Of a stretch of DNA of 64,000 bases, positions 26,422 to 55,821 are shown in pieces. Position numbers and translations under genes: made by a program. How positions within the stretch are numbered: the stretch's first letter is position 1; every line of letters starts with the position of its first letter. Under the pieces are notes generated by a model, which was given only the letters and a program-made list of their open reading frames with translations, ran no database searches and was not told where the DNA came from. Source of the DNA: an uncultured Candidatus Rokubacteria bacterium (GTDB lineage: Bacteria > Methylomirabilota > Methylomirabilia > Rokubacteriales > CSP1-6); the NCBI GenBank assembly GCA_963771355.1, contig CAVYTA010000006.1:192001-256000 (forward strand), given 5' to 3'.

Positions 26422-27426
26422 ATGCCCAAGCTCATCGCGAGTGCGTTGCTGATCGGCCTGTGCCTGGTCCCGGGACTTTCGGCGGCACACTCATTCTCTG
26501 GGCTGGTCGTTTTCGGCGATAGCTTGTCCGATTCCGGCCGAGCCTTCGTTCTGAGCGACGGGCTCTATCGGCCTTCGCCGCCCTATGCGCAGCGGTTCAG
26601 TAATGGCCCGGTCGCACCCGAGTACTTGGCTTCGGCGCTGGGCTTGCCGCTGCTCCCAGCCAGCACGCCCGGGGGGACGAACTATGCCGTTGGCGGCGCC
26701 ACCACCGACACCAGGAACGTGGCCTGGGAGACTGACCTCCCGCCCGGTGTCAAATCGATCGCGGCGCTTCAGCACACCGGGATCACCACCCAGGTCGGCG
26801 AGTTCCTTTCCAGCGGGCCGCCCATCGATCGAGCCAATGCCCTCTTCATGGTCTGGGGTGGGCCAAACGACATCGTCCTCGCGTTTCTGACCGGCGACGA
26901 CCTCGCCGCGGCGGCGGGAGCGGCGGTGGGCAATCTTGCGGGAGCGGTCGAGGCCCTCGCCCTCGGGGGAGGTCAGCACTTCCTCGTGCCCAACATGGTG
27001 GACCTGGGCCAGACACCGGAATTCGTGGGCACGCCACTCCAGAACCCACTACGCACGCTCGTCCAGGGCTTCAACATGGCCCTCGCCGACGCAATGGCTG
27101 ACCTCGAGACGGGGCTGGAGGAGGCGGGCCTCCCGGTGGACATCACGGTGTACGACACCTTCGCGTTGTTCGACGACGTTCTGGCCAATCCCGAGGCGTT
27201 CGGTTTCACAAACACCACGGACTCCTGCCTCGACAACCTCGACGCCTTCCGGGCCGGCTGCCCGGGTTACATCTTCTTCGATTTCACGCACCCGACGACG
27301 CAGGCCCACCGTCTCCTCGGACTGGTATTCAGCGCCGCCGTTGTGCCGGCGCCACCGGGCGCCGTCCTCGTTCTAGTCGGGGCCGGCCTGGTCGCGCTGC
27401 TCGGTCGCCGTCGGGGTCGGGTCTGA
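26422..27426 (+). CDS. Secreted SGNH/GDSL hydrolase with a PEP-CTERM-like sorting signal
   Basis: Signal peptide, FGDSLSD, RFSNG, GPND and DFTHPT motifs. C-terminus is VPAP, a hydrophobic helix and RRRGRV. Confidence 0.88.
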   Translation: MPKLIASALLIGLCLVPGLSAAHSFSGLVVFGDSLSDSGRAFVLSDGLYRPSPPYAQRFSNGPVAPEYLASALGLPLLPASTPGGTNYAVGGATTDTRNVAWETDLPPGVKSIAALQHTGITTQVGEFLSSGPPIDRANALFMVWGGPNDIVLAFLTGDDLAAAAGAAVGNLAGAVEALALGGGQHFLVPNMVDLGQTPEFVGTPLQNPLRTLVQGFNMALADAMADLETGLEEAGLPVDITVYDTFALFDDVLANPEAFGFTNTTDSCLDNLDAFRAGCPGYIFFDFTHPTTQAHRLLGLVFSAAVVPAPPGAVLVLVGAGLVALLGRRRGRV

Positions 27427-42715: not shown

Positions 42716-43501
42716 TCAGGCGGCGGTCACGCCGCCGTCGACGGGCAGGGCCGCGCCGGTGATGAAGGAGGCTTCGTCGGAGAGAAGGAAGAGGGCGGCA
42801 TTCGCGATCTCGTCGGGCCGGCCGGTGCGGCCCAGCGGTACCGAGCCGCCGGCGCGCTTGCGCACCAGCTCCTCCGGGTCCATGCCGGCGGTGGACTTCT
42901 GGTCGGGCCGGGCCACGAACACGCGCAGCATCGGCGTGTCGATGGGCCCGGGACACACCGCGTTCACGCGGATCTTCTCGGGGGCGAGCCGCACCGCCAG
43001 GCTCTTGACGAAGCCCACCACGCCGAACTTGCACATCGAGTAGACGGGGCTATAGGCGGAGCCCTGGAGCCCGGAGGTGGAGGCGGTGAAGAGCAGGCTG
43101 CCGCCCCCGCGGGCGCGCAGCTCCGGGATGGCCGCCTCGGTGGTCATGAGCACCGTGCGGAGATTGAGATCGATGGCGAGGTCGAAGGCGCTCATGTCGA
43201 TGCCCTCGACGGCGGCCGGTCCCGGATGGCCGACGTGGTTCCAGACGAAGTCGAGCCCCTTGAAGCGGGTCACCGTGTCCCACACGATGCGCCGCGAGTC
43301 CTCGTCCCGGGTCAGGTCCGCGGGGATGCCGAGCGCGGTGCCGCCGGCGGCGGTGATCTCGCCGACGACGCGCTGCACGCCCGGCGCGTCCACGTCCACC
43401 ACCGCGACCTGCGCGCCCTCGCGCGCGAAGCGCAGGGCGCCGGCCCGGCCCATGCCCGAGGCGGCGGCGGTCACGATCCCGATCTTCCCGGCCAGGCGCA
43501 T
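42716..43501 (-). CDS. SDR family oxidoreductase
   Basis: TAAASGMG, YSMCK and VNAVCPG motifs. Confidence 0.9.
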   Translation of the reverse strand: MRLAGKIGIVTAAASGMGRAGALRFAREGAQVAVVDVDAPGVQRVVGEITAAGGTALGIPADLTRDEDSRRIVWDTVTRFKGLDFVWNHVGHPGPAAVEGIDMSAFDLAIDLNLRTVLMTTEAAIPELRARGGGSLLFTASTSGLQGSAYSPVYSMCKFGVVGFVKSLAVRLAPEKIRVNAVCPGPIDTPMLRVFVARPDQKSTAGMDPEELVRKRAGGSVPLGRTGRPDEIANAALFLLSDEASFITGAALPVDGGVTAA

Positions 43502-43589
43502 CGGTCCAGATTCTATACCCGTCGGGACCGGGGGGAAACACCGCCCGCGCTTGACACCCGGCCGTCGCGCGGGCAAGTTCGTGAGCGAC

Positions 43590-45608
<2,019 letters not shown>

Positions 45609-45609
<1 letters not shown>

Positions 45610-46571
45610 TGAGCGATACCCTCGCGTTCCTGCTCCAGTACGGCTACGTGATTCTCTACGCCTGCGTGCTGGCCGAGCAGGTCGGGCTTCCGGTCCCCGC
45701 GGTGCCGGTCCTGCTCGGGATGGGCGCGCTCGCCGGCGCCGGAGAGATGAGCCTGCCGCTCGCGCTCGGCGTGGTGCTGGCAGCGTCCTTGCCGCCGGAC
45801 CTCGTCTGGTACGAGCTCGGGCGGCGCCGTGGTCCGCGAGTGCTCGCTCGCATCTGCGCGATCTCGCTCGAGCCGGACTGGTGCGTCCGGCGGACCGAGA
45901 GCATGTTCATCCGGTTCGGCCGGAAGCTCCTGCTGGTCGCGAAGTTCCTGCCCGGGCTGAGCGCGGTGGCCTCGCCGCTGGCCGGGTCGGCCGGCGTGGC
46001 GCGGTGGCAGTTCGTCCTGCTCGACGTCACCGGCGCGCTGCTATGGGCCGGAACCTGGATGGGGATCGGCTATGCTTTCAGCGAGGCCCTGGACGTGGTG
46101 GCGGGTTGGGTCGCCCGGCTCGGCGGCTATGCGCTGCTGCTCGCGGGGGCCGCCTTGGCTGCCTACGTCGTGTTGAAGTATGCCAAGCGGCAGCGCATCT
46201 TCCGAGAGCTGCGGATGGCGCGCATCACCCCCGACGAGCTCAGGCGCCGGATCGACGCCGGCGACGGCGGCCTGGCCATCATCGACACCCGATCGGCGCT
46301 GGACGTGAGGGCGGTGCCCTTTCTGATCCCCGGCGCGATACGGATCGACGCCGACGAGGTCGAACGGCGCCACGCCGAGCTGCCGAAGGACCGAGAAATC
46401 GTCTTGTACTGCACCTGACCCAATGAAGCCACGAGCGCCCGGGTGGCGCTACGGCTCAAGCGACTCGGCTTCATGCGGGTCCGGCCCCTTCTGGGTGGCA
46501 TCGCGCTGTGGATGGACCAGAAATTCCCCGTGGAGGACATCCCGGAGCTTTTACTCGGTCCGCGCCCATGA
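45609..46571 (+). CDS. DedA/VTT-rhodanese fusion, probable selenoprotein (UGA at 46416-46418)
   Basis: DedA motifs EQVGLPVP and AKFLPG. The rhodanese domain continues in frame past TGA as YCT-U-PNEATSARVALRLKRLGFMRVRPLLGGIALW to a stop at 46571. Confidence 0.82.
46427..46456 (+). promoter_or_regulatory. Putative bacterial SECIS element
   Basis: AGCGCC-CGGGT-GGCGCT hairpin with lower stem AGCC/GGCT. Loop starts 22 nt after the UGA. Confidence 0.65.
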
Positions 46572-46699
46572 CTCGTCGGTCGCCCGACGCCATGGGACCT
46601 TTTGCGGCCATGTTTCCGTGCACTTGCCGCCGGGTCGTGCTGGCTCGGTCGAGCTGGAAGCTAGTGAAGCGGCCGAGCCATCAAAAGGGCGTGGCTCAT

Positions 46700-48007
46700 A
46701 TGTTCCGTCTTCTGGGTAGTGTGGCGCTGATCGGGATGTTCTCGGGCCTGGTGGCCTGCGATCGGTCGCCTCAGGTCAACGCCGCCCCCAAGCCGCCCGC
46801 GGTCACGGTGGTGGCGGTCGCGCAACGCTCGGTCCCCGTGTACGGCCAGTACGTGGGTCAGACGGAAGCGGTGAAGACGGTCGAGGTGCGGGCGCGGGTC
46901 GAGGGCTTCATCGAGCGGCAGGTAGCGCCCGACGGGGCCAACGTCAAGGCGGGCGATCTCCTCTTCGTCATCGATGCGCGCCCCTTGCAGGCCGCGCTCC
47001 GCCAGGCGGAGGCCAATGTCGCCCGCGACAGCGCCGCGCTTCATCAGGCGGAAGCAGCCCTGACTCAGCGCGAGGCCGATGTGCGCCAGGCGCAGGCCAA
47101 TGTCGAGCGCGACGTCGCGCAGGCCGAGAATGCCCGCACGCAGGAAGGGCGCTATCGCGCCCTCCTCGAGAAAGAGCTGATCGCCCGCGAGCAGTACGAC
47201 CAGATCCGCACCAACATGACCGCGCTGGAGGCTACCGCGCAGGCCGACCGCGCCGCCCTCGAGAACGCGCGGGCCGCGCTCGCCGCCTCCCGGGCCGCCA
47301 TCGAGAACGCGCGGGCCTCGGTCCGCGCCAACGAGGCCGCGGCCGACAGCGCCCGGCTCCAGCTCGACTACACCTCCATCAGATCGCCGCTGGACGGGCG
47401 CATGGGGCGGGCCGAGGTCCGGGTGGGGGCGCTGGTCGGTAAGGGCGACGCCACGCTCCTGGCCACGGTGTCCACGCTCGATCCGATGTACGTCAGCTTC
47501 AGCGTGAGCGAGCGCGAGGCGCTGTCCGTGTGGGGGCGTCGCCGGGCGGAGATGCCGGCGCAGCCGAGCGTCTCCGGCATCACCCTGACGCTCCCGGACG
47601 ATACCCGGTACGCGCACGACGGGCGGCTCGACTTCGTCGACCGCGCGGTGGACCCGCGGACGGGCACCCTCGCTCTGCGCGCCGCCTTCCCGAACCCGGA
47701 GCGCAAGCTCCAGCCGGGCCAGTACGTACGGATCCAGGTCCTCCTCTCCGAGCGCCCCGACGCACTCGTCGTGCCTCAGGCCGCGATCCAGGAGAGCCAG
47801 GGTTCGGCGTCGCTGTTCGTGGTCGCGCCGGATCAGACAGTGCAGACACGTGCGGTGCGGATGGGACCGCGCCTGGGACCGCTGTGGGTCGTCGAGGAAG
47901 GCGTGAAGCCCGGCGAGCACGTCGTGGTCAAGGGCCTCCAGCAGATCCGGACCGGGATCCGCGTGGAGCCGACCCTGGAGCCCCTTCCGGCCGCCACCGG
48001 GGGCTAG
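46700..48007 (+). CDS. RND efflux periplasmic adaptor (MFP) lipoprotein
   Basis: LVAC lipobox, VEVRARVEG, a long coiled coil, IRSPLDG and VDPRTGT. Confidence 0.92.
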   Translation: MFRLLGSVALIGMFSGLVACDRSPQVNAAPKPPAVTVVAVAQRSVPVYGQYVGQTEAVKTVEVRARVEGFIERQVAPDGANVKAGDLLFVIDARPLQAALRQAEANVARDSAALHQAEAALTQREADVRQAQANVERDVAQAENARTQEGRYRALLEKELIAREQYDQIRTNMTALEATAQADRAALENARAALAASRAAIENARASVRANEAAADSARLQLDYTSIRSPLDGRMGRAEVRVGALVGKGDATLLATVSTLDPMYVSFSVSEREALSVWGRRRAEMPAQPSVSGITLTLPDDTRYAHDGRLDFVDRAVDPRTGTLALRAAFPNPERKLQPGQYVRIQVLLSERPDALVVPQAAIQESQGSASLFVVAPDQTVQTRAVRMGPRLGPLWVVEEGVKPGEHVVVKGLQQIRTGIRVEPTLEPLPAATGG

Positions 48008-48013
48008 CCGCCG

Positions 48014-51000
48014 ATGTTCGTCAACTTCTTCATCGACCGCCCGATCTTTGCCTCGGTGCTCGCCATCGTCATCGTGGTGGCCGGCGCGGTGGCGATTCCG
48101 TTCCTGCCCATCGCGCAGTTTCCCGAGATCACGCCGCCGCAGGTGGTGGTGACCGCCACCTATCCGGGGGCGAGCGCCGAGGTCGTGGAGCAGACGGTGG
48201 CCACGCCCATCGAGCAGCAGGTCAACGGCGTCGAGGACATGATCTACATGTCCTCCCGCAGCGGCAGCGATGGCACGATGACGCTCACGGTGACGTTCAA
48301 GGTCGGTGCCGACCTCGACATCGCCGCCGTGAACGTGCAGAACCGCGTCTCCATCGCCCAGGCGAAGCTGCCCGCGGATGTGACCCGGCAGGGGATCACC
48401 ATCACCAAGCAAAGTCCGGATCTCGTCGAGATCGTCGCCTTGGTCTCCCCCGACGGGAGCCGCGACGAGCTCTACCTGGCGAACTACGCCACGCTCCAGG
48501 TCGTGGACGTGCTGGCGCGGGTGCCCGGGGTGGGGCAGGTGACCGTCTTCAACGGGCGGGACTATGGCATGCGGCTCTGGCTGAACCCCGACCGGCTCGC
48601 CGGCCTGGGGCTCACCGCCGGGGACGTGGCCGACGCGGTCCGGGAGCAGAACCTCCAGGCCGCCGCCGGTCAGATCGGCCAGCCGCCGTCACTCCCCGGG
48701 CAGCAGTTCCAGTACACGGTCACCACGCGTGGGCGCCTGTCGACGCCGGCCGAATTCGAGGACATCATCCTCCGCACGCGGTCCGACGGCTCGCTGCTCC
48801 GCGTCCGTGACGTCGCCCGGGTCGAGCTGGGCGCCCAGAGCTATGGGTCCTTCGGCCGAGTGGGCGGGAAGCCGGCCGCGCTCATCGGCATCTTCCAGCT
48901 GCCCGGCGCCAACGCCCTCGAGGTGTCGAAAGGGGTCCAGGCGGCGGTGGCGCGGCTCGCCCCGAGCTTTCCGGGTGGGGTCACCCATGAGCGCCCGTAC
49001 AACACGACGGAGTTCGTCCGGGTCTCGATCGAGGAGGTCGTGCTGACCCTCCTCATCGCGATCGGCCTCGTCGTCCTCACCGTCTACGTCTTCCTGCAGG
49101 ACTGGCGGGCCACCCTCATCCCGACCCTGACCATCCCGGTGTCGCTGGTGGGGACCTTCGCCGTCATCAGCGTGTTCGGGTTCTCGATCAATACGCTGAC
49201 GCTCTTCGGCCTCGTCCTGGCCATCGGGATCGTGGTGGACGACGCCATCGTGGTGGTGGAGAACACCCAGCGGCACCTCGACGAGGAGGGCTTGGATCCG
49301 CGCGAGGCGGCCCGTCGAGCGACCGCGGAAGTGGTGGGCCCGGTCATCGCCACCGCGCTCGTGTTGATGGCGGTGTTCATCCCGATCGCCTTCCTGCCCG
49401 GCATCACCGGCCAGCTCTACCGGCAGTTCGCGCTGACCATCGCGGTGTCGGTGGCGCTGTCCGCGCTGAATGCGCTCACGCTGACCCCGGCGCTGTGCGC
49501 GCTCCTCCTCCGTCCCGCCGGCGCGGCCCGGAAGCGCTGGCTCGGCCGGGTCTGGGACGCGGGGTTTCTCCGGCTCACCAACGGCTACGATCGGACCGTC
49601 CGGCGCATCGTCCGGCGGGCCGGGCTCGCGGTGGTGGTGCTGCTGCTCCTGGGCGGCGCCGCCTACGCGTTGCTGCGCGTGGTGCCCACGGGCTTCGCGC
49701 CCACCGAGGACCAGGGCTATCTGCTCGTCAACGCCCAGCTCCCCGACGCCGCCTCCGTGGAGCGCACCGACGCCGTCGTTCGCCAGATCGAGCAGATCCT
49801 GCTCGAGACGCCCGGTGTCGAGACGGTGGTGGCCATCGGCGGGCGCAGCTTCATCACGGGCGTCAATGGCCCGAACGTGGCCTCCCTCTTCCCCCGGCTC
49901 ACGGAGTGGTCCCATCGGAAGGCGCCCGAGCTCCAGGCCGGAGCCATCCTGGCCCGCCTGCGCGCGCGCCTCGGCAGCATCCAGGAGGCCTCCATCGTGG
50001 TCTTTCCGCCGCCCCCCATCCGGGGTATCAGCTCCGGCGGCGGGTTCCAGTTCGAGCTGCAAAGCGTGGGCGGCGGCTCGCTCCAGGAGCTCGACGCCAC
50101 CGCCCGGAAGATCATGGACGCAGCCCGCCAGCGTCCGGAGCTGGCGGCGACCTTCACGGGGTTCCGGCCGGGCGTGCCGCAGCTCGACGCGCAGGTGGAC
50201 CGCGCCAAGGCCAAGGCGCTCGGGGTGCCGCTGTCCGACGTCTTCTCGAGCCTGCAGATCTTCCTGGGCTCGCTCTACGTCAACGACTTCAACGCCTTCG
50301 GTCGTGTGTATCGTGTCCAGCTCCAGGCCGAGCCGAGCTTCCGCACCTCCCCCAGCGACGTGGCGCGACTCTATGTCCGGAGCCAGCCCTCCGCCAGCGG
50401 CCAGCCCGCCCAGATGGTGCCGCTGAGCACGCTCGTCTCCGTGAAGCCCATCACCGGGCCCGACACGATCTCCCACTACAATCTCTATCGGACGGCGGAG
50501 ATCGCGGGTGACACGGCGCCCGGCGCCAGCTCCGGTCAGGCCATCGCGGCCATGCAGGACGTGGCGCGCACCGTCATGCCACCCGGCATGTCATATGAGT
50601 GGACGGGCCTCGCCTTCCAGGAGATCGAGGCGGGCAGCCGCGCGGGGTTCGTCTTCGGCCTGTCCGCGCTCTTCGTCTTCCTCGTCCTGGCCGCCCAGTA
50701 CGAGAGCTGGCTCGTCCCTCTGGCGGTGCTCCTGGCGGTGCCACTCGGTGTGCTCGGCGCGCTGGGGGCCCTCTGGATGAGCGGCCTGGCCAACGACGTG
50801 TATGCCCAGATCGGCCTCGCGCTCCTCATCGGGCTGGCGAGCAAGAACGCCATCCTCATCGTGGAGTTCGCCAAGGAGCGCCGGGAGCACGGGACCGAGA
50901 TCCAGGAAGCGGCGCGGGAAGCCGCCCGGCTGCGCTTCCGACCCATCCTGATGACGTCCTTCGCGTTCATTCTGGGCTCGCTTCCGCTGGTCTTCGCGTC

Positions 51001-51190
51001 GGGAGCGGGCGCCGCCAGCCGGAACTCGATGGGCACCACGGTGGTGGGCGGGATGCTCGCGGTGACGGTGCTCGGCGTGCTGCTCGTCCCGGCCTTCTAC
51101 GTCGCGGTGGAGAAGCTCGCGGAGTGGCGGAAACGCCCCGAACCGATCCCCGCTCCGCCGGCCGATCGCGCCATCGAGAGGTCGCGTTAG
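48014..51190 (+). CDS. RND efflux permease (HAE1 family)
   Basis: FFIDRPIFA, GIVVDDAIVVVEN, SKNAILIVEF and RFRPILMT motifs. Confidence 0.95.
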   Translation: MFVNFFIDRPIFASVLAIVIVVAGAVAIPFLPIAQFPEITPPQVVVTATYPGASAEVVEQTVATPIEQQVNGVEDMIYMSSRSGSDGTMTLTVTFKVGADLDIAAVNVQNRVSIAQAKLPADVTRQGITITKQSPDLVEIVALVSPDGSRDELYLANYATLQVVDVLARVPGVGQVTVFNGRDYGMRLWLNPDRLAGLGLTAGDVADAVREQNLQAAAGQIGQPPSLPGQQFQYTVTTRGRLSTPAEFEDIILRTRSDGSLLRVRDVARVELGAQSYGSFGRVGGKPAALIGIFQLPGANALEVSKGVQAAVARLAPSFPGGVTHERPYNTTEFVRVSIEEVVLTLLIAIGLVVLTVYVFLQDWRATLIPTLTIPVSLVGTFAVISVFGFSINTLTLFGLVLAIGIVVDDAIVVVENTQRHLDEEGLDPREAARRATAEVVGPVIATALVLMAVFIPIAFLPGITGQLYRQFALTIAVSVALSALNALTLTPALCALLLRPAGAARKRWLGRVWDAGFLRLTNGYDRTVRRIVRRAGLAVVVLLLLGGAAYALLRVVPTGFAPTEDQGYLLVNAQLPDAASVERTDAVVRQIEQILLETPGVETVVAIGGRSFITGVNGPNVASLFPRLTEWSHRKAPELQAGAILARLRARLGSIQEASIVVFPPPPIRGISSGGGFQFELQSVGGGSLQELDATARKIMDAARQRPELAATFTGFRPGVPQLDAQVDRAKAKALGVPLSDVFSSLQIFLGSLYVNDFNAFGRVYRVQLQAEPSFRTSPSDVARLYVRSQPSASGQPAQMVPLSTLVSVKPITGPDTISHYNLYRTAEIAGDTAPGASSGQAIAAMQDVARTVMPPGMSYEWTGLAFQEIEAGSRAGFVFGLSALFVFLVLAAQYESWLVPLAVLLAVPLGVLGALGALWMSGLANDVYAQIGLALLIGLASKNAILIVEFAKERREHGTEIQEAAREAARLRFRPILMTSFAFILGSLPLVFASGAGAASRNSMGTTVVGGMLAVTVLGVLLVPAFYVAVEKLAEWRKRPEPIPAPPADRAIERSR

Positions 51191-51297: not shown

Positions 51298-53421
51298 ATG
51301 ATGCGCGGACATTCGATGATGGCTCTCGTGGCGCTCATCCTCGCGGGCCTGTCCGGTGGCGCCTTCGCGCAGGGCGGCGGGGCGGCCAAAGGCTCCGCCG
51401 AGCACATCCGGGCCGCGACCGGCAAGGTCGACGGCGCCGCCATCGCCGCCAATGCGCGAATGACGCGGGACTGGCCTACCCATGGCCTGGACTACGCCGA
51501 GACGCGCTTCAGCCGGCTCAGCCAGATCAACGCGGACAACGTCAAAGTCCTCGGCCTTGCCTGGGCGTACGACCTCGAGTCCACGCGCGGGGTTGAGGCG
51601 ACGCCGCTGGTGGTGGACGGTGTCATGTACGTCAGCGCCTCGTGGAGCGTCGTGCACGCCGTCGACGTGCGTAACGGCAAACGCCTGTGGGTCTACGATC
51701 CCGATGTCCCACGGGAAACGGGCTACAAGGGGTGCTGCGACGTGGTCAACCGCGGCGTCGCCCTCTACAAGGGCAAGGTCTTCGTCGCCACCTACGACGG
51801 TCGCCTGGTGGCCCTGGACGCCGCCACCGGCAACGTAGTGTGGACGAAGGACACCATCATCGACCGCTCGCGCTCCTACACTATCACCGGCGCCCCGCGC
51901 GTCTACAGGGGCAAGGTGATCATCGGCAACGGTGGCGCCGAGTACGGGGTCCGCGGGTACATCACTGCCTACGACACCGAGACCGGCGCCCAGCGCTGGC
52001 GCTGGTTCACGGTGCCGGGCGATCCCTCCAAGCCCTTCGAGGATGCCTCGATGGCCCGCGCCGCCAAGACGTGGGATCCGAGCGGCAAGTACTGGGAGGC
52101 CGGCGGCGGGGGAACCGCGTGGGACACGATGACCTTCGATCCCGACCTCAACCTCATGTACGTGGGCACCGGCAACGGTTCGCCGTGGGCGCGGAGCAAG
52201 CGGAGCCCGGCGGGCGGGGACAATCTCTACCTGGCTTCCATCGTCGCCCTCAACCCCGACACCGGAAAATACGTCTGGCACTACCAGGAGACGCCGGGGG
52301 ACAACTGGGACTTCACCTCGACGCAGCCGATGATCCTGGCCGACCTCAAGATCGACGGCGCCGCCCGCAAGGTGATCCTGCACGCGCCGAAGAACGGCTT
52401 CTTCTTCGTCATCGACCGCACCAGCGGCAAGCTCATCTCGGCGAAGAACTTCGTCGACGTGAACTGGGCCACCGGCTATGACAAGGGCGGGCGCCCGATC
52501 GAGACGCCCGAAGCCCGGGTAGTGGACCGGCCGCGCGAGATCATCCCGAGCCCCTACGGCGCGCGTAACTGGCACCCGATGTCGTTCAACCCGCAGACCG
52601 GCCTCGTCTATATGCCGGTGCAAGGCGTGCCGGTCAACCTGATGGACAACAAGAACTGGAAGCTGGGCGGCAACACGCCCGGTGAGCCCCACGGCGGGCT
52701 CGGCTGGAACCTGGCCATGTACGCCAATGCGGAGCCGCCCAAGAGCAAGCCCTTCGGCCGCCTCGTCGCCTGGGATCCGGTGCAACAGAAGGAAGCGTGG
52801 CGCCAGGAACACGTGTCCCCGTGGAACGGCGGCACGCTCACCACCGCCGGCAACCTCGTGTTCCAGGGCACCGCCGACGGGCGTTTCATGGCCTACAACG
52901 CCACCACCGGCGAGAAGCGGTGGGAAGCCCCGACGGGGACCGGCGTGGTGGCGGGGCCGGTCACGTATCTCGTGGACGGAACGCAGTACGTATCGGTGGC
53001 GGTGGGCTGGGGTGGAGTCTACGGCGTCATGCATCGCGCCACCAACCGGCAGGGACCGGGCACGGTCTACACCTTCGCTCTCGGCCGGAACGTCAAGGCG
53101 CCTGACTTCGTCGAGTACCAGCAGGGCGCGCTGGTCCAGGGCGTCAAGTACGATCCCGCCCATGTGCAGGAAGGCACCCTCCTCTACGTCAGCAACTGTG
53201 TGTTCTGCCATGGCGTCCCCGGGGTGGACCGCGGCGGCAACGTGAAGAACCTGGGCTACGCGTCAAGCGAGGTGATCGGCAACCTCGAGAAATTCGTGTA
53301 CCGGGGCCCGACCATGGCGGTGGGCATGCCCGACTTCACCGGCAAGCTCACGCCGGACCAGCTCGAGAAGATCAAGGCGTTCATCCAGGGTACGGCGGAC
53401 GCGATCCGGCCGAAGAACTAG
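51298..53421 (+). CDS. PQQ-dependent quinohemoprotein alcohol dehydrogenase (type II)
   Basis: Signal peptide, vicinal GCCD, GNGGAE, WDFTS and a C-terminal cytochrome c CVFCH. Confidence 0.92.
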   Translation: MMRGHSMMALVALILAGLSGGAFAQGGGAAKGSAEHIRAATGKVDGAAIAANARMTRDWPTHGLDYAETRFSRLSQINADNVKVLGLAWAYDLESTRGVEATPLVVDGVMYVSASWSVVHAVDVRNGKRLWVYDPDVPRETGYKGCCDVVNRGVALYKGKVFVATYDGRLVALDAATGNVVWTKDTIIDRSRSYTITGAPRVYRGKVIIGNGGAEYGVRGYITAYDTETGAQRWRWFTVPGDPSKPFEDASMARAAKTWDPSGKYWEAGGGGTAWDTMTFDPDLNLMYVGTGNGSPWARSKRSPAGGDNLYLASIVALNPDTGKYVWHYQETPGDNWDFTSTQPMILADLKIDGAARKVILHAPKNGFFFVIDRTSGKLISAKNFVDVNWATGYDKGGRPIETPEARVVDRPREIIPSPYGARNWHPMSFNPQTGLVYMPVQGVPVNLMDNKNWKLGGNTPGEPHGGLGWNLAMYANAEPPKSKPFGRLVAWDPVQQKEAWRQEHVSPWNGGTLTTAGNLVFQGTADGRFMAYNATTGEKRWEAPTGTGVVAGPVTYLVDGTQYVSVAVGWGGVYGVMHRATNRQGPGTVYTFALGRNVKAPDFVEYQQGALVQGVKYDPAHVQEGTLLYVSNCVFCHGVPGVDRGGNVKNLGYASSEVIGNLEKFVYRGPTMAVGMPDFTGKLTPDQLEKIKAFIQGTADAIRPKN

Positions 53422-54548: not shown

Positions 54549-54983
54549 CTAGAGCGTCTTCACAACCTCGGCCGGCCATGCCCGGGCGTCGACGCGGGCG
54601 TGCCACTCCTTGATCTTGCCGTCCCGGTCGATCACCACGCCCACGCGCTGGGCGCCCTTCTGCGGGTCCGTGTTGGCGCCGTAGGCGGTGCCGATGTTGC
54701 GGTCGGTGTCGCAGATGAGCGGGAAGTTGAAGTGGTACTTCTCGGCGAACGCCTTGTTCTCGGCAGGGGTGTCGAACGACACCCCGAGGATCACGGCGCC
54801 CTTCTTGTCGTAGTCGGCCTTGAGGTCGCGGAACCCGCAACCCTCCGCCGTTCAGCCGGGGGTGTCGGCCTTGGGGAAGAACCACAGCACGATCGCCTTG
54901 CCCTTGAAGTCCGACAGCTTCACGGGGTTGCCGTTGTGGTCGCGGCCGGTGAAGTCGGGGGCCTTGTCGCCTGCCTTCAGCAT
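54549..54983 (-). CDS. bcp: Peroxiredoxin BCP/PrxQ, probable selenoprotein (UGA at 54852-54854)
   Basis: MLKAGDKAPDF...WFFPKADTPG-U-TAEGCGFRD...ILGVSFD forms one continuous frame. UGA sits at the peroxidatic Cys of PxxxTxxC. Confidence 0.88.
54822..54845 (-). promoter_or_regulatory. Putative bacterial SECIS element
   Basis: GAGG-G-TTGCGG-GTT-CCGCGA-CCTC hairpin. G-initial loop starts 18 nt after the UGA. Confidence 0.7.
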
Positions 54984-54999
54984 ATGTCCTCCGCTGGTG

Positions 55000-55821
55000 T
55001 CACTGGTTCTGGGTTTCGAGCAGGGCCGCGAGCGCTCGGTAGGCGCGACGGGCGCGCTCGGCGGCGGGAAGATCGGCGGTGGCCCGGGACGGCGCCTCCA
55101 CCGCGAGCGGCAAGTCCGGGGGCAGCGCGGCCACGAGATCGCGCAGGGGCAGAACGCCCTCGCCCGGAAGTAGCCGCCCCGTTCGCGCCTCGCGGATGAG
55201 CGCGGGCGAGTCGGTGGGGCCGGGCATGTCCGCGGACGCGTCGCAGATCTGCGCATAGGGAAACAGCGACGGGTCCACACCGGCGATATGCGCCGGCAGC
55301 CCTCCGGATCGGCTGAAGTGGAGCGCGTCCACCACGACCGAGGCGTTCGCGCGGTTCGCGCGGCCCACCATCTGGACGGCGTGGGCGAGCGTGGGGACTC
55401 CGGTGTAGACGGCGAACTCCAGCCCGACCCGAAGCCCGTACCGGGCCGCCCGGTCGCAGAGATCACCGAAGCGCTCGAGGGTGCGGGCCTCGTCCGGCTC
55501 GGCGCTCATGACGAGGACATGCCGCGCGCCCAGGCGCGCCGAGACTTCGAGAAAGCCCTCCGGGATACCCACCGGCCGGTCGGGCTCGAAGCGCAGAAAT
55601 TCCGTGTCGAGCACGGTGATCCCGGTGTCCTTGAGGCGCGCGAGCGTGTCCCGCAGCAGGGGCCCCTCGCTCAGGATGTCATAGGGAGGGACGCCCACGC
55701 TCGGCGGAGCGGTGAGCCGGATTCCGACCGCGTGGAAACCCGCCGCCGCCGCCACCGACACCAGCTCGGGCGGTGTCGTGTCCAGCACGGTCAGGTGAGC
55801 CAGCGAGAGCTGACGAGGCAT
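55000..55821 (-). CDS. Sugar phosphate isomerase/epimerase family TIM barrel
   Basis: LSLAHLT, GLEF, VDALHFSR, QICDA and RLLPGEG motifs. Confidence 0.85.
   Translation of the reverse strand: MPRQLSLAHLTVLDTTPPELVSVAAAAGFHAVGIRLTAPPSVGVPPYDILSEGPLLRDTLARLKDTGITVLDTEFLRFEPDRPVGIPEGFLEVSARLGARHVLVMSAEPDEARTLERFGDLCDRAARYGLRVGLEFAVYTGVPTLAHAVQMVGRANRANASVVVDALHFSRSGGLPAHIAGVDPSLFPYAQICDASADMPGPTDSPALIREARTGRLLPGEGVLPLRDLVAALPPDLPLAVEAPSRATADLPAAERARRAYRALAALLETQNQ

Follow-up and report, generated by a model that had tools for sequence, protein, structure and literature searches.

The window analysed is a 64,000-nucleotide stretch of DNA from an uncultured Candidatus Rokubacteria bacterium. The gene under study within it encodes a DedA/VTT membrane domain followed by a rhodanese domain, with an in-frame TGA in the active-site loop (Table 1). 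From the ATG at position 45609 the frame runs through 269 codons, reaches this TGA immediately after Y-C-T, continues for 50 sense codons and ends at a second TGA (46569–46571). PF09335 followed by PF00581, both matched above their gathering scores, defines the product as a DedA-rhodanese fusion. An earlier note on this DNA had claimed that the 50 codons past Y-C-T complete the rhodanese fold, and the Pfam match bore this out: the rhodanese domain extends from residue 207 to 303 and is therefore complete only with read-through of the TGA.

Table 1. Features of the DedA-rhodanese locus (positions in the window).
Feature	Position	Strand	Remarks
Flavin monooxygenase (BVMO-like)	43996..45609	+	Start inferred; not a conserved neighbour
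Full CDS, DedA/VTT-rhodanese fusion	45609..46571	+	320 aa with Sec at 270
DedA/VTT domain, residues 29-155	45693..46073	+	PF09335, 36.2 bits against a cut-off of 33.9
Cysteine pair C83-x8-C92 in DedA domain	45855..45884	+	Each Cys in 118/127 representatives
Rhodanese domain, residues 207-303	46227..46517	+	PF00581, 43.6 bits against a gathering score of 22.2
Active-site loop C268-T-U270-P-N-E-A-T275	46410..46433	+	Two residues longer than the usual six-residue loop
In-frame TGA, inferred Sec codon U270	46416..46418	+	
Bacterial SECIS (putative)	46434..46450	+	6-bp stem, CGGGT loop, 21 nt after UGA
RND adaptor (46700-48007) and RND permease (48014-51190)	46700..51190	+	Adaptor downstream only within the genus

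Two re-entrant segments were predicted in the VTT domain, the first carrying acidic residues and the second a basic one. D64 and the motif K112-F-x-P-G lie inside the DedA domain and E23 just N-terminal of it. Residues 68–107, which include C83 and C92, comprise 10 Lys or Arg against 4 Asp or Glu, and the linker to the rhodanese domain is also rich in Lys and Arg; both are therefore predicted to face the cytoplasm. An AlphaFold2 model (131 sequences, with Cys standing for Sec) had a mean pLDDT of 94.6 and a pTM of 0.85, and placed residues 268–270 between the last strand and the start of a helix (271–285). Alignment of the C-terminal part of the model with VIA-align gave Z scores of 16.5 to 2hhg and 13.7 to GlpE (1gn0), and fold searches returned only rhodanese chains, the DedA part being barely covered. 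RNA contigs of run X15 cover the 5′ part of the gene (45615–46147) but, giving neither level nor strand, are not taken as a sign of expression. No sigma-70 promoter matches or plus-strand terminators were found in 43400–46800.

The frequency of an open frame and a hairpin after a TGA was estimated in the same genome, which has 70% GC. Among 2548 long, high-GC3 frames ending in TGA, 1243 remained open for at least 50 further codons, 568 had a 6-bp hairpin of the same geometry and 290 had both. The combination was dismissed as proof by itself; such single-sequence features are no better than chance, so that homology and conservation carry the claim.

The TGA is not an assembly error, because contigs from two other studies span it unchanged. 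One (X8, 45921–46454) has no differences from the window and the other (X6, 45320–46599) a single difference, at 46034; a further contig (X2) also crosses the TGA, with one difference somewhere along its length. The codon, which the earlier note had proposed to check at the read level, thus stands as TGA in X6 and X8 and not as TGC. The selenocysteine genes that the note's reading presupposed are all present: selA (501 bits), selB (367 bits) and the tRNA-Sec gene selC (69 bits) lie within about 5 kb on one contig (C7), and selD (266 bits) lies on another (C4), all above their cut-offs. The SelD of this genome has Cys at its own active site and sits in an 817-residue open frame.

To determine how codon 270 is distributed, 201 Methylomirabilota genomes were searched at an E value of 1e-40, and 86 of them had a match. 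There were 115 matches spanning the protein, of which 102 carried one TGA, 3 carried a TGA and a second stop, and 10 were stop-free, with Cys at position 270 in 3 of the latter and another residue in 7. At the 68 loci that cover the site, a few of them from other phyla, codon 270 was TGA in 53, Cys in 7 and something else in 8. The TGA is accordingly not unique to this genome, and both the downstream frame and the hairpin are conserved. A selA match was present in 28 of 32 relatives with the TGA form (one of these partial, at a contig end) and absent in four, namely G002, G005, G014 and G016 (78, 89, 98 and 95% complete, respectively); selB above the cut-off was not found in these four either. 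G014 and G016 (L074 and L075) have a SelD with TGA at its active site, though selA, selB and selC were not found in them. This suggests that their missing selA reflects assembly gaps, because their SelD carries a TGA of its own. For G002 and G005 nothing beyond incompleteness accounts for the absence of selA. A tRNA-Sec match in G002 (47.7 bits) was rejected, as it lies beside EF-Tu and is probably another tRNA. In other phyla, selA accompanied the TGA form in one Nitrospirota and one Acidoferrum genome and was missing where the Cys form occurred, in Lysobacter and a Verrucomicrobia genome.

A second phylum was sampled through 301 genomes around G216 (Terriglobia, Acidobacteriota), of which 53 had a match, and 58 loci in 52 of these were examined; G240 was excluded from the locus counts and is included in the 301 genomes and in the selA total. 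Codon 270 was TGA at 32 of the 58 loci. All 32 genomes with the TGA form had selA, compared with 3 of the 20 with only non-TGA forms and 228 of the 301 in the whole sample (Fisher p 5e-11 for selA against the TGA form, a value that is overstated because kin are not independent). This co-occurrence is the pattern that recoding would predict. The Cys forms of this phylum are probably largely one lineage, because 13 of them share an upstream gene.

The hairpin had been described beforehand as a GC-rich stem of 6 bp with a G-containing loop, 22 nt past the UGA, and it was found as such: AGCGCC (46434–46439) pairs with GGCGCT (46445–46450) around the loop (46440–46444), which begins at nucleotide +22, 21 nt separating it from the UGA. 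In a 42-nt fold the 6-bp hairpin is present at −16.7 kcal/mol (z −1.63), and when the folded stretch is widened to 60 nt to take in the UGA, the hairpin bases are paired differently at minimum energy (z −2.14). The bSECIS model, as set out in PMC13188914, comprises a loop of 3–9 nt with a G within its first two positions, a stem of 4–16 bp, a spacing of 16–37 nt and an energy of −7.5 kcal/mol or lower; the 5-nt loop C-G-G-G-T, 6 bp, 21 nt and −16.7 kcal/mol observed here all fall within these ranges.

Synonymous codons in the stem were nearly invariant among the 53 TGA genes, with AGC in 52/52 for Ser, GCC in 48/49 for Ala, GTG in 46/46 for Val and GCG in 51/52 for Ala. At conserved positions elsewhere, the commonest codon had a median share of 0.50–0.71, depending on the residue, and maxima of 0.66–0.91. 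This near-fixation indicates that the hairpin is under selection. Stem positions were paired in 98.7% of cells against 17–65% in controls with a slid register; the changes seen were five wobble and one compensatory. Covariation was weak, as the stem hardly varies, and 10 of 500 shuffles scored equally high. In the second phylum the inner 3 bp were paired in 31/31 TGA genes against 7/22 Cys genes, and the loop matched CG[GT]G[TC] in 31/32 against 0/22. The loop codon of these Cys forms is mostly Lys which, together with their shared lineage, means that the contrast is partly phylogenetic. In the first set, 3 of 15 non-TGA loci (L064, L078 and L079) retain an identical hairpin, which probably reflects recent loss of Sec.

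A TGA at a conserved Cys position, a conserved hairpin and a full set of Sec machinery together make the Sec reading very likely. The proposal of an in-frame UGA read as Sec with the help of a SECIS element is thus upheld by the comparative evidence, the machinery and the frozen stem codons, and TGA 270 is almost certainly recoded as selenocysteine in the cell.

Sec and Cys forms were interleaved on a FastTree phylogeny of 181 rows, which is unrooted and gives no direction of change. It comprised 23 changes, at least 9 of them forced by starred branches, and exchange between Cys and Sec must therefore have occurred repeatedly. For this tree 31 of the 150 representatives were dropped; 23 of the 150 (partial or frameshifted) were dropped to give the 127 representatives used for residue counts, and 24 of the 150 for the independent-pair test below. 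The duplicate loci L051, L053 and L055 were left out as well. Of the 150 best representatives (50% clustering), 41 stop precisely at residue 269; these are presumed Sec forms on the strength of that truncation and not of their DNA. The same truncation is found in 118 of the 120 nearest database proteins, which end at Y/F-C-x (residue 269), the codon before the TGA, or in 104 of 106 once 14 rows representing the protein studied here are set aside. GenBank HEU5190619.1, for example, is a 269-residue VTT protein. The Sec form is thus common in soil bacteria (Methylomirabilota, and 32 Acidobacteriota genomes of 301), yet routinely truncated in databases.

The gene neighbourhood was compared across both sets. 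The overlap of the monooxygenase stop with the start of the fusion gene (TGATG, 45607–45611) and the RND genes downstream are present as the earlier note had described, but the context that it had taken as coupling is not conserved: among the 68 loci of the first set, just two others (G002 and G005, of the same genus) have the gene between a monooxygenase and an RND adaptor. The monooxygenase match in G005 ends about 770 nt upstream, and the TGATG overlap is therefore not kept there; two other members of the genus have neither gene within flanks of 0.5–1.5 kb. Functional coupling to the monooxygenase and RND pump was rejected on this basis. The largest cluster of neighbours reached at most 6 of the 68 loci (many flanks being only 1.5 kb), and the gene does not appear to belong to a conserved operon. 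None of the neighbour genes at the loci examined in both phyla pointed to a substrate.

Several neighbours recurred within smaller groups of loci. An RND permease is nearby at 5 loci of the first set, and in the second set 14 of the 58 loci (the group of L118, L121, L122, L126–L128, L130–L134, L136, L139 and L153) have an HlyD adaptor as a neighbour. All but one of the 14 are Cys forms, at which the adaptor is upstream on the same strand. Acidobacteriota Cys-form loci also have an outer-membrane efflux protein upstream at 7 loci and UbiD downstream at 9. A polyprenyl synthetase is upstream at 4 loci. Sec forms were seen next to pirin at 5 loci and next to a ferritin/Dps-like gene at 3 (the group of L029, L030, L037, L073 and L092), and a pyridine nucleotide-disulfide oxidoreductase downstream at 4 loci (the group of L026, L045, L063 and L080).

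The C-x-U rhodanese loop is already known, and its fusion to a DedA membrane domain is uncatalogued. A 2026 catalogue of prokaryotic selenoproteins recognises 119 families; rhodanese-like form 3 (NF041203, CxU) is one of them, and the DedA fusion, in the accessible part of that source, is not (PMC13188914). A literature search for selenoprotein or selenocysteine together with DedA or VTT and rhodanese found no prior description, although specialised tables may differ. A survey of selenoproteins in groundwater genomes by Deng et al. 2026 reportedly includes a Methylomirabilota genome with 63 predicted genes. The tables of BSepDB, of Haft and Tolstoy 2025 or of Deng et al. may hold DedA-fused entries under the rhodanese family. 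The description of this gene as a candidate little-known selenoprotein therefore stood for the DedA fusion, which is unlisted, but not for the C-x-U loop, already described in NF041203; as the Sec motif itself is known, the surprise is limited.

NF041203 (rhodanese_LYCAU) was the best NCBIfam match, over residues 199–310 with an E value of 1.7e-26. The loop L-Y-C-x-U-P is shared, reading L-Y-C-T-U-P-N-E-A-T-S here and L-Y-C-A-U-P-N-E-A-T-S in standalone members from the deep-Sep supplement, with Sec at the same position. The score of 92.3 bits (87.5 in the genome search) is below the curated cut-off of 115. The model spans 126 positions and both examples inspected consist of one domain without DedA, whereas the protein here has 320 residues with an N-terminal DedA domain, that is, an extra membrane domain of 200 residues with a cysteine pair of its own. 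By these comparisons the protein would work like the NF041203 domain but fall outside that family. TsoB (rhodanese/DsbD-like, NF045694), a catalogued Sec rhodanese fusion, differs in its UxxxxU motif and its partner domain. The single-domain rhodaneses GlpE, PspE and RDL2 share the rhodanese fold, with the Z score to GlpE given above, and differ from the protein here, whose loop is longer by two residues and holds a second chalcogen.

Cys forms of the same architecture are annotated by NCBI as "DedA family protein/thiosulfate sulfurtransferase GlpE", with the same two domains and the same length. Records from Ralstonia and Xanthomonas are about 40% identical and have the consensus Y-C-x-C-P-N-E and the C83/C92 pair. 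They have Cys and no SECIS element, in contrast to the Sec and SECIS found here. The loop Y-C-x-C-P-N-E is indeed typical of DedA-rhodanese fusions, as had been noted beforehand: 80 of 86 full-length representatives have Cys at 270. PA1209 of P. aeruginosa has the same architecture as the Cys form, a likeness drawn from architecture and not from alignment. No published biochemical function for the Cys form was found in the literature searched. The DedA-rhodanese fusion is mentioned in PMC10127716, where the link of the rhodanese to the lipid carrier is called unclear and the reason for the fusion is treated as an open question. A link to selenite uptake has been reported for a DedA protein of Cupriavidus metallidurans (as cited in PMC8679861 and PMC5358740); the supplements searched do not name the protein. 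XdfA of Xanthomonas is a DedA protein of 200–250 residues without a rhodanese domain.

The catalytic position in the loop was assessed by comparison with rhodaneses of known structure. In profile alignments the canonical catalytic Cys falls on C268 for some solved rhodaneses and on position 270 for others. The rhodanese loop has six residues and ends in Arg, Thr or Ser, according to PMC8533005. Counted from U270 it ends in Thr275, and counted from C268 it ends in Glu273; 70 of 86 full-length representatives have Ser or Thr at 275. As U-P-N-E-A-T would make a six-residue loop ending in Thr like canonical ones, Sec is the likelier nucleophile, with C268 as an extra resolving thiol. The repeated exchange of Cys and Sec at 270 also suggests that residue 270 is likely the reactive one.

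These observations suggest a mechanism in which the DedA domain would hold the rhodanese domain at the inner membrane face, Sec270 would act as the nucleophile accepting sulfane sulfur or selenium, and Cys268 would resolve the Sec270 adduct. The Sec loop would then hand over to C83/C92 and so link the chemistry to the DedA transport site. On balance, we regard the protein as a membrane selenoprotein of 320 residues that probably carries out Sec270/Cys268 chalcogen chemistry at the inner membrane face; the membrane-anchored sulfur/selenium or redox role that the earlier note had predicted is thereby supported. That the chemistry at C268-x-U270 is catalytic, as chalcogen transfer or thiol redox, seems a reasonable expectation. 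The hand-over to C83/C92, coupling this chemistry to the transport site, is proposed tentatively. A fuller version, in which DedA is a chalcogen-coupled transporter whose loop passes sulfur, selenium or electrons to C83/C92, a pair belonging to the rhodanese-fused branch of DedA proteins, which would in turn gate or feed the transport path, is doubtful.

The second pair of cysteines is well conserved, C83 and C92 being kept in 118 of 127 representatives each and C268 in 122, and C83/C92 are present at 54/54 Sec or Cys loci of the second phylum. At 120 genome loci both pairs were kept in 109, both lost in 9 and discordant in 2. Joint loss of the two pairs was not significant among the 127 representatives (Fisher p 0.18), and a sign test restricted to independent pairs gave a median p of 1. 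That the DedA pair and the loop pair are lost together was therefore rejected as proof of coupling, failing the phylogenetic test, and is taken as a hypothesis only. Full-length homologs without a chalcogen at 270 were L064, L079, L081, L082, L083, L084, L085, L057, L144, L149 and L153, and 9 of these 11 also lack C83 or C92.

The same conservation would suit a different role, in which Sec is inserted as proposed but C83, C92, C268 and U270 jointly bind a metal or metalloid, or sense redox state, and thereby gate DedA, with the rhodanese domain as a sensor instead of a transferase. All four positions are kept together in 109/127 representatives and at 109/120 genome loci, and the C-x-C spacing with an acidic loop residue (Glu or Asp at 273 in 79 of 86 full-length representatives) would suit metal binding. 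A paralog in the same genome with Sec at the first position (Y-U-A-C-P) implies that either position can be Sec, and the efflux genes described above, RND permease and HlyD, recur beside the gene. These efflux neighbours are, however, limited to few lineages, the joint loss of the cysteine pairs is not significant, and standalone rhodaneses have the same loop without any DedA domain. We consider such a site or sensor unlikely.

The DedA domain could also be an ordinary flippase or scramblase of undecaprenyl phosphate, with the Sec rhodanese tethered to it and uncoupled. Rhodanese fusions sit in COG0586, a subfamily proposed to flip undecaprenyl phosphate (PMC10127716), and the COG0586 proteins UptA, YghB and YqjA share the VTT domain and re-entrant segments. 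The acidic re-entrant residues are kept here as D64 and E23; D64 is found in 113/127 representatives, Glu or Asp at 23 in 83/127 and a basic residue at 112 in 120/127. The polyprenyl synthetase upstream at 4 loci would also fit. Against this, the UptA models gave just 30 of 250 and 29.6 of 300 bits, far below their cut-offs, and the protein differs from UptA, YghB and YqjA in having Lys for Arg, an extra cysteine pair and an enzyme domain at its C-terminus. Position 112 is mostly Lys and is the one basic residue (K112), with none six residues on, where residue 118 is Ser in place of the second Arg of YghB (on a tentative mapping to YghB numbering after PMC10127716). C83/C92 are lost in the rhodanese-less paralog L013 and at 9 of 11 genome loci without the loop pair, and deletion of PA1209 in P. 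aeruginosa gave no envelope or antibiotic phenotype in rich medium (PMC12893004). An uncoupled flippase is on these grounds distinctly improbable.

A further alternative, a genuine stop or an error in the sequence at the TGA, with the gene reduced to a truncated or decaying DedA protein, is scarcely credible: open frames and hairpins after TGA are frequent in this genome, relatives L025, L070, L072 and L073 have frameshifts or extra stops, and databases annotate the 269-residue form, but the recurrence of this codon at this position in two phyla and in single genomes from others, the dependence on selA, the frozen synonymous codons, the conserved downstream protein and the independent contigs all argue against it.

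For the favoured reading, a Sec270/Cys268 enzyme at the membrane, the conserved C83/C92 pair names a possible partner, through which the reason for the DedA-rhodanese fusion becomes testable. Should the chalcogen-coupled transporter prove true, it would provide DedA-rhodanese fusions with their first mechanism, might account for the link reported between a DedA protein and selenite uptake, and would give soil Methylomirabilota and Acidobacteriota one more membrane selenoprotein, common but systematically truncated.

Other rhodanese and DedA genes were found in the same genome. L019 (G000:C5, about 27018–27345, +) is a standalone rhodanese with the loop F-Y-C-A-TGA-P-A-E, in which the probable start codon (ATG, L019:1362) and the TGA (L019:1561) differ in frame by one base; the offset is either an assembly indel or a real frameshift. 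The paralog with Sec first (G000:C6:847627-847932, −) is a third TGA rhodanese, with the loop L-L-Y-TGA-A-C-P-H-E (U-x-C) and an apparent signal peptide in front; the U-x-C motif is absent from the five rhodanese forms in the catalogue table, in the part of PMC13188914 available. L018 (G000:C6:1461346-1461729, +) has a rhodanese domain with the Cys-form loop Y-C-G-C-P, and L013 (G000:C6:332778-333374, +) is a DedA-only paralog, 51% identical, without a rhodanese domain and without C83. Further downstream in the window, a long ORF (51304–53421, +) is a candidate gene for a PQQ-dependent alcohol dehydrogenase, its product apparently carrying a C-x-x-C-H heme motif at the C-terminus. On the minus strand (54549–55199), a peroxiredoxin-like (AhpC/TSA-looking) frame appears to stop at F-F-P-K-A-D-T-P-G near 54852 and to be continued by a second ORF, and it is possibly another TGA-interrupted selenoprotein gene.
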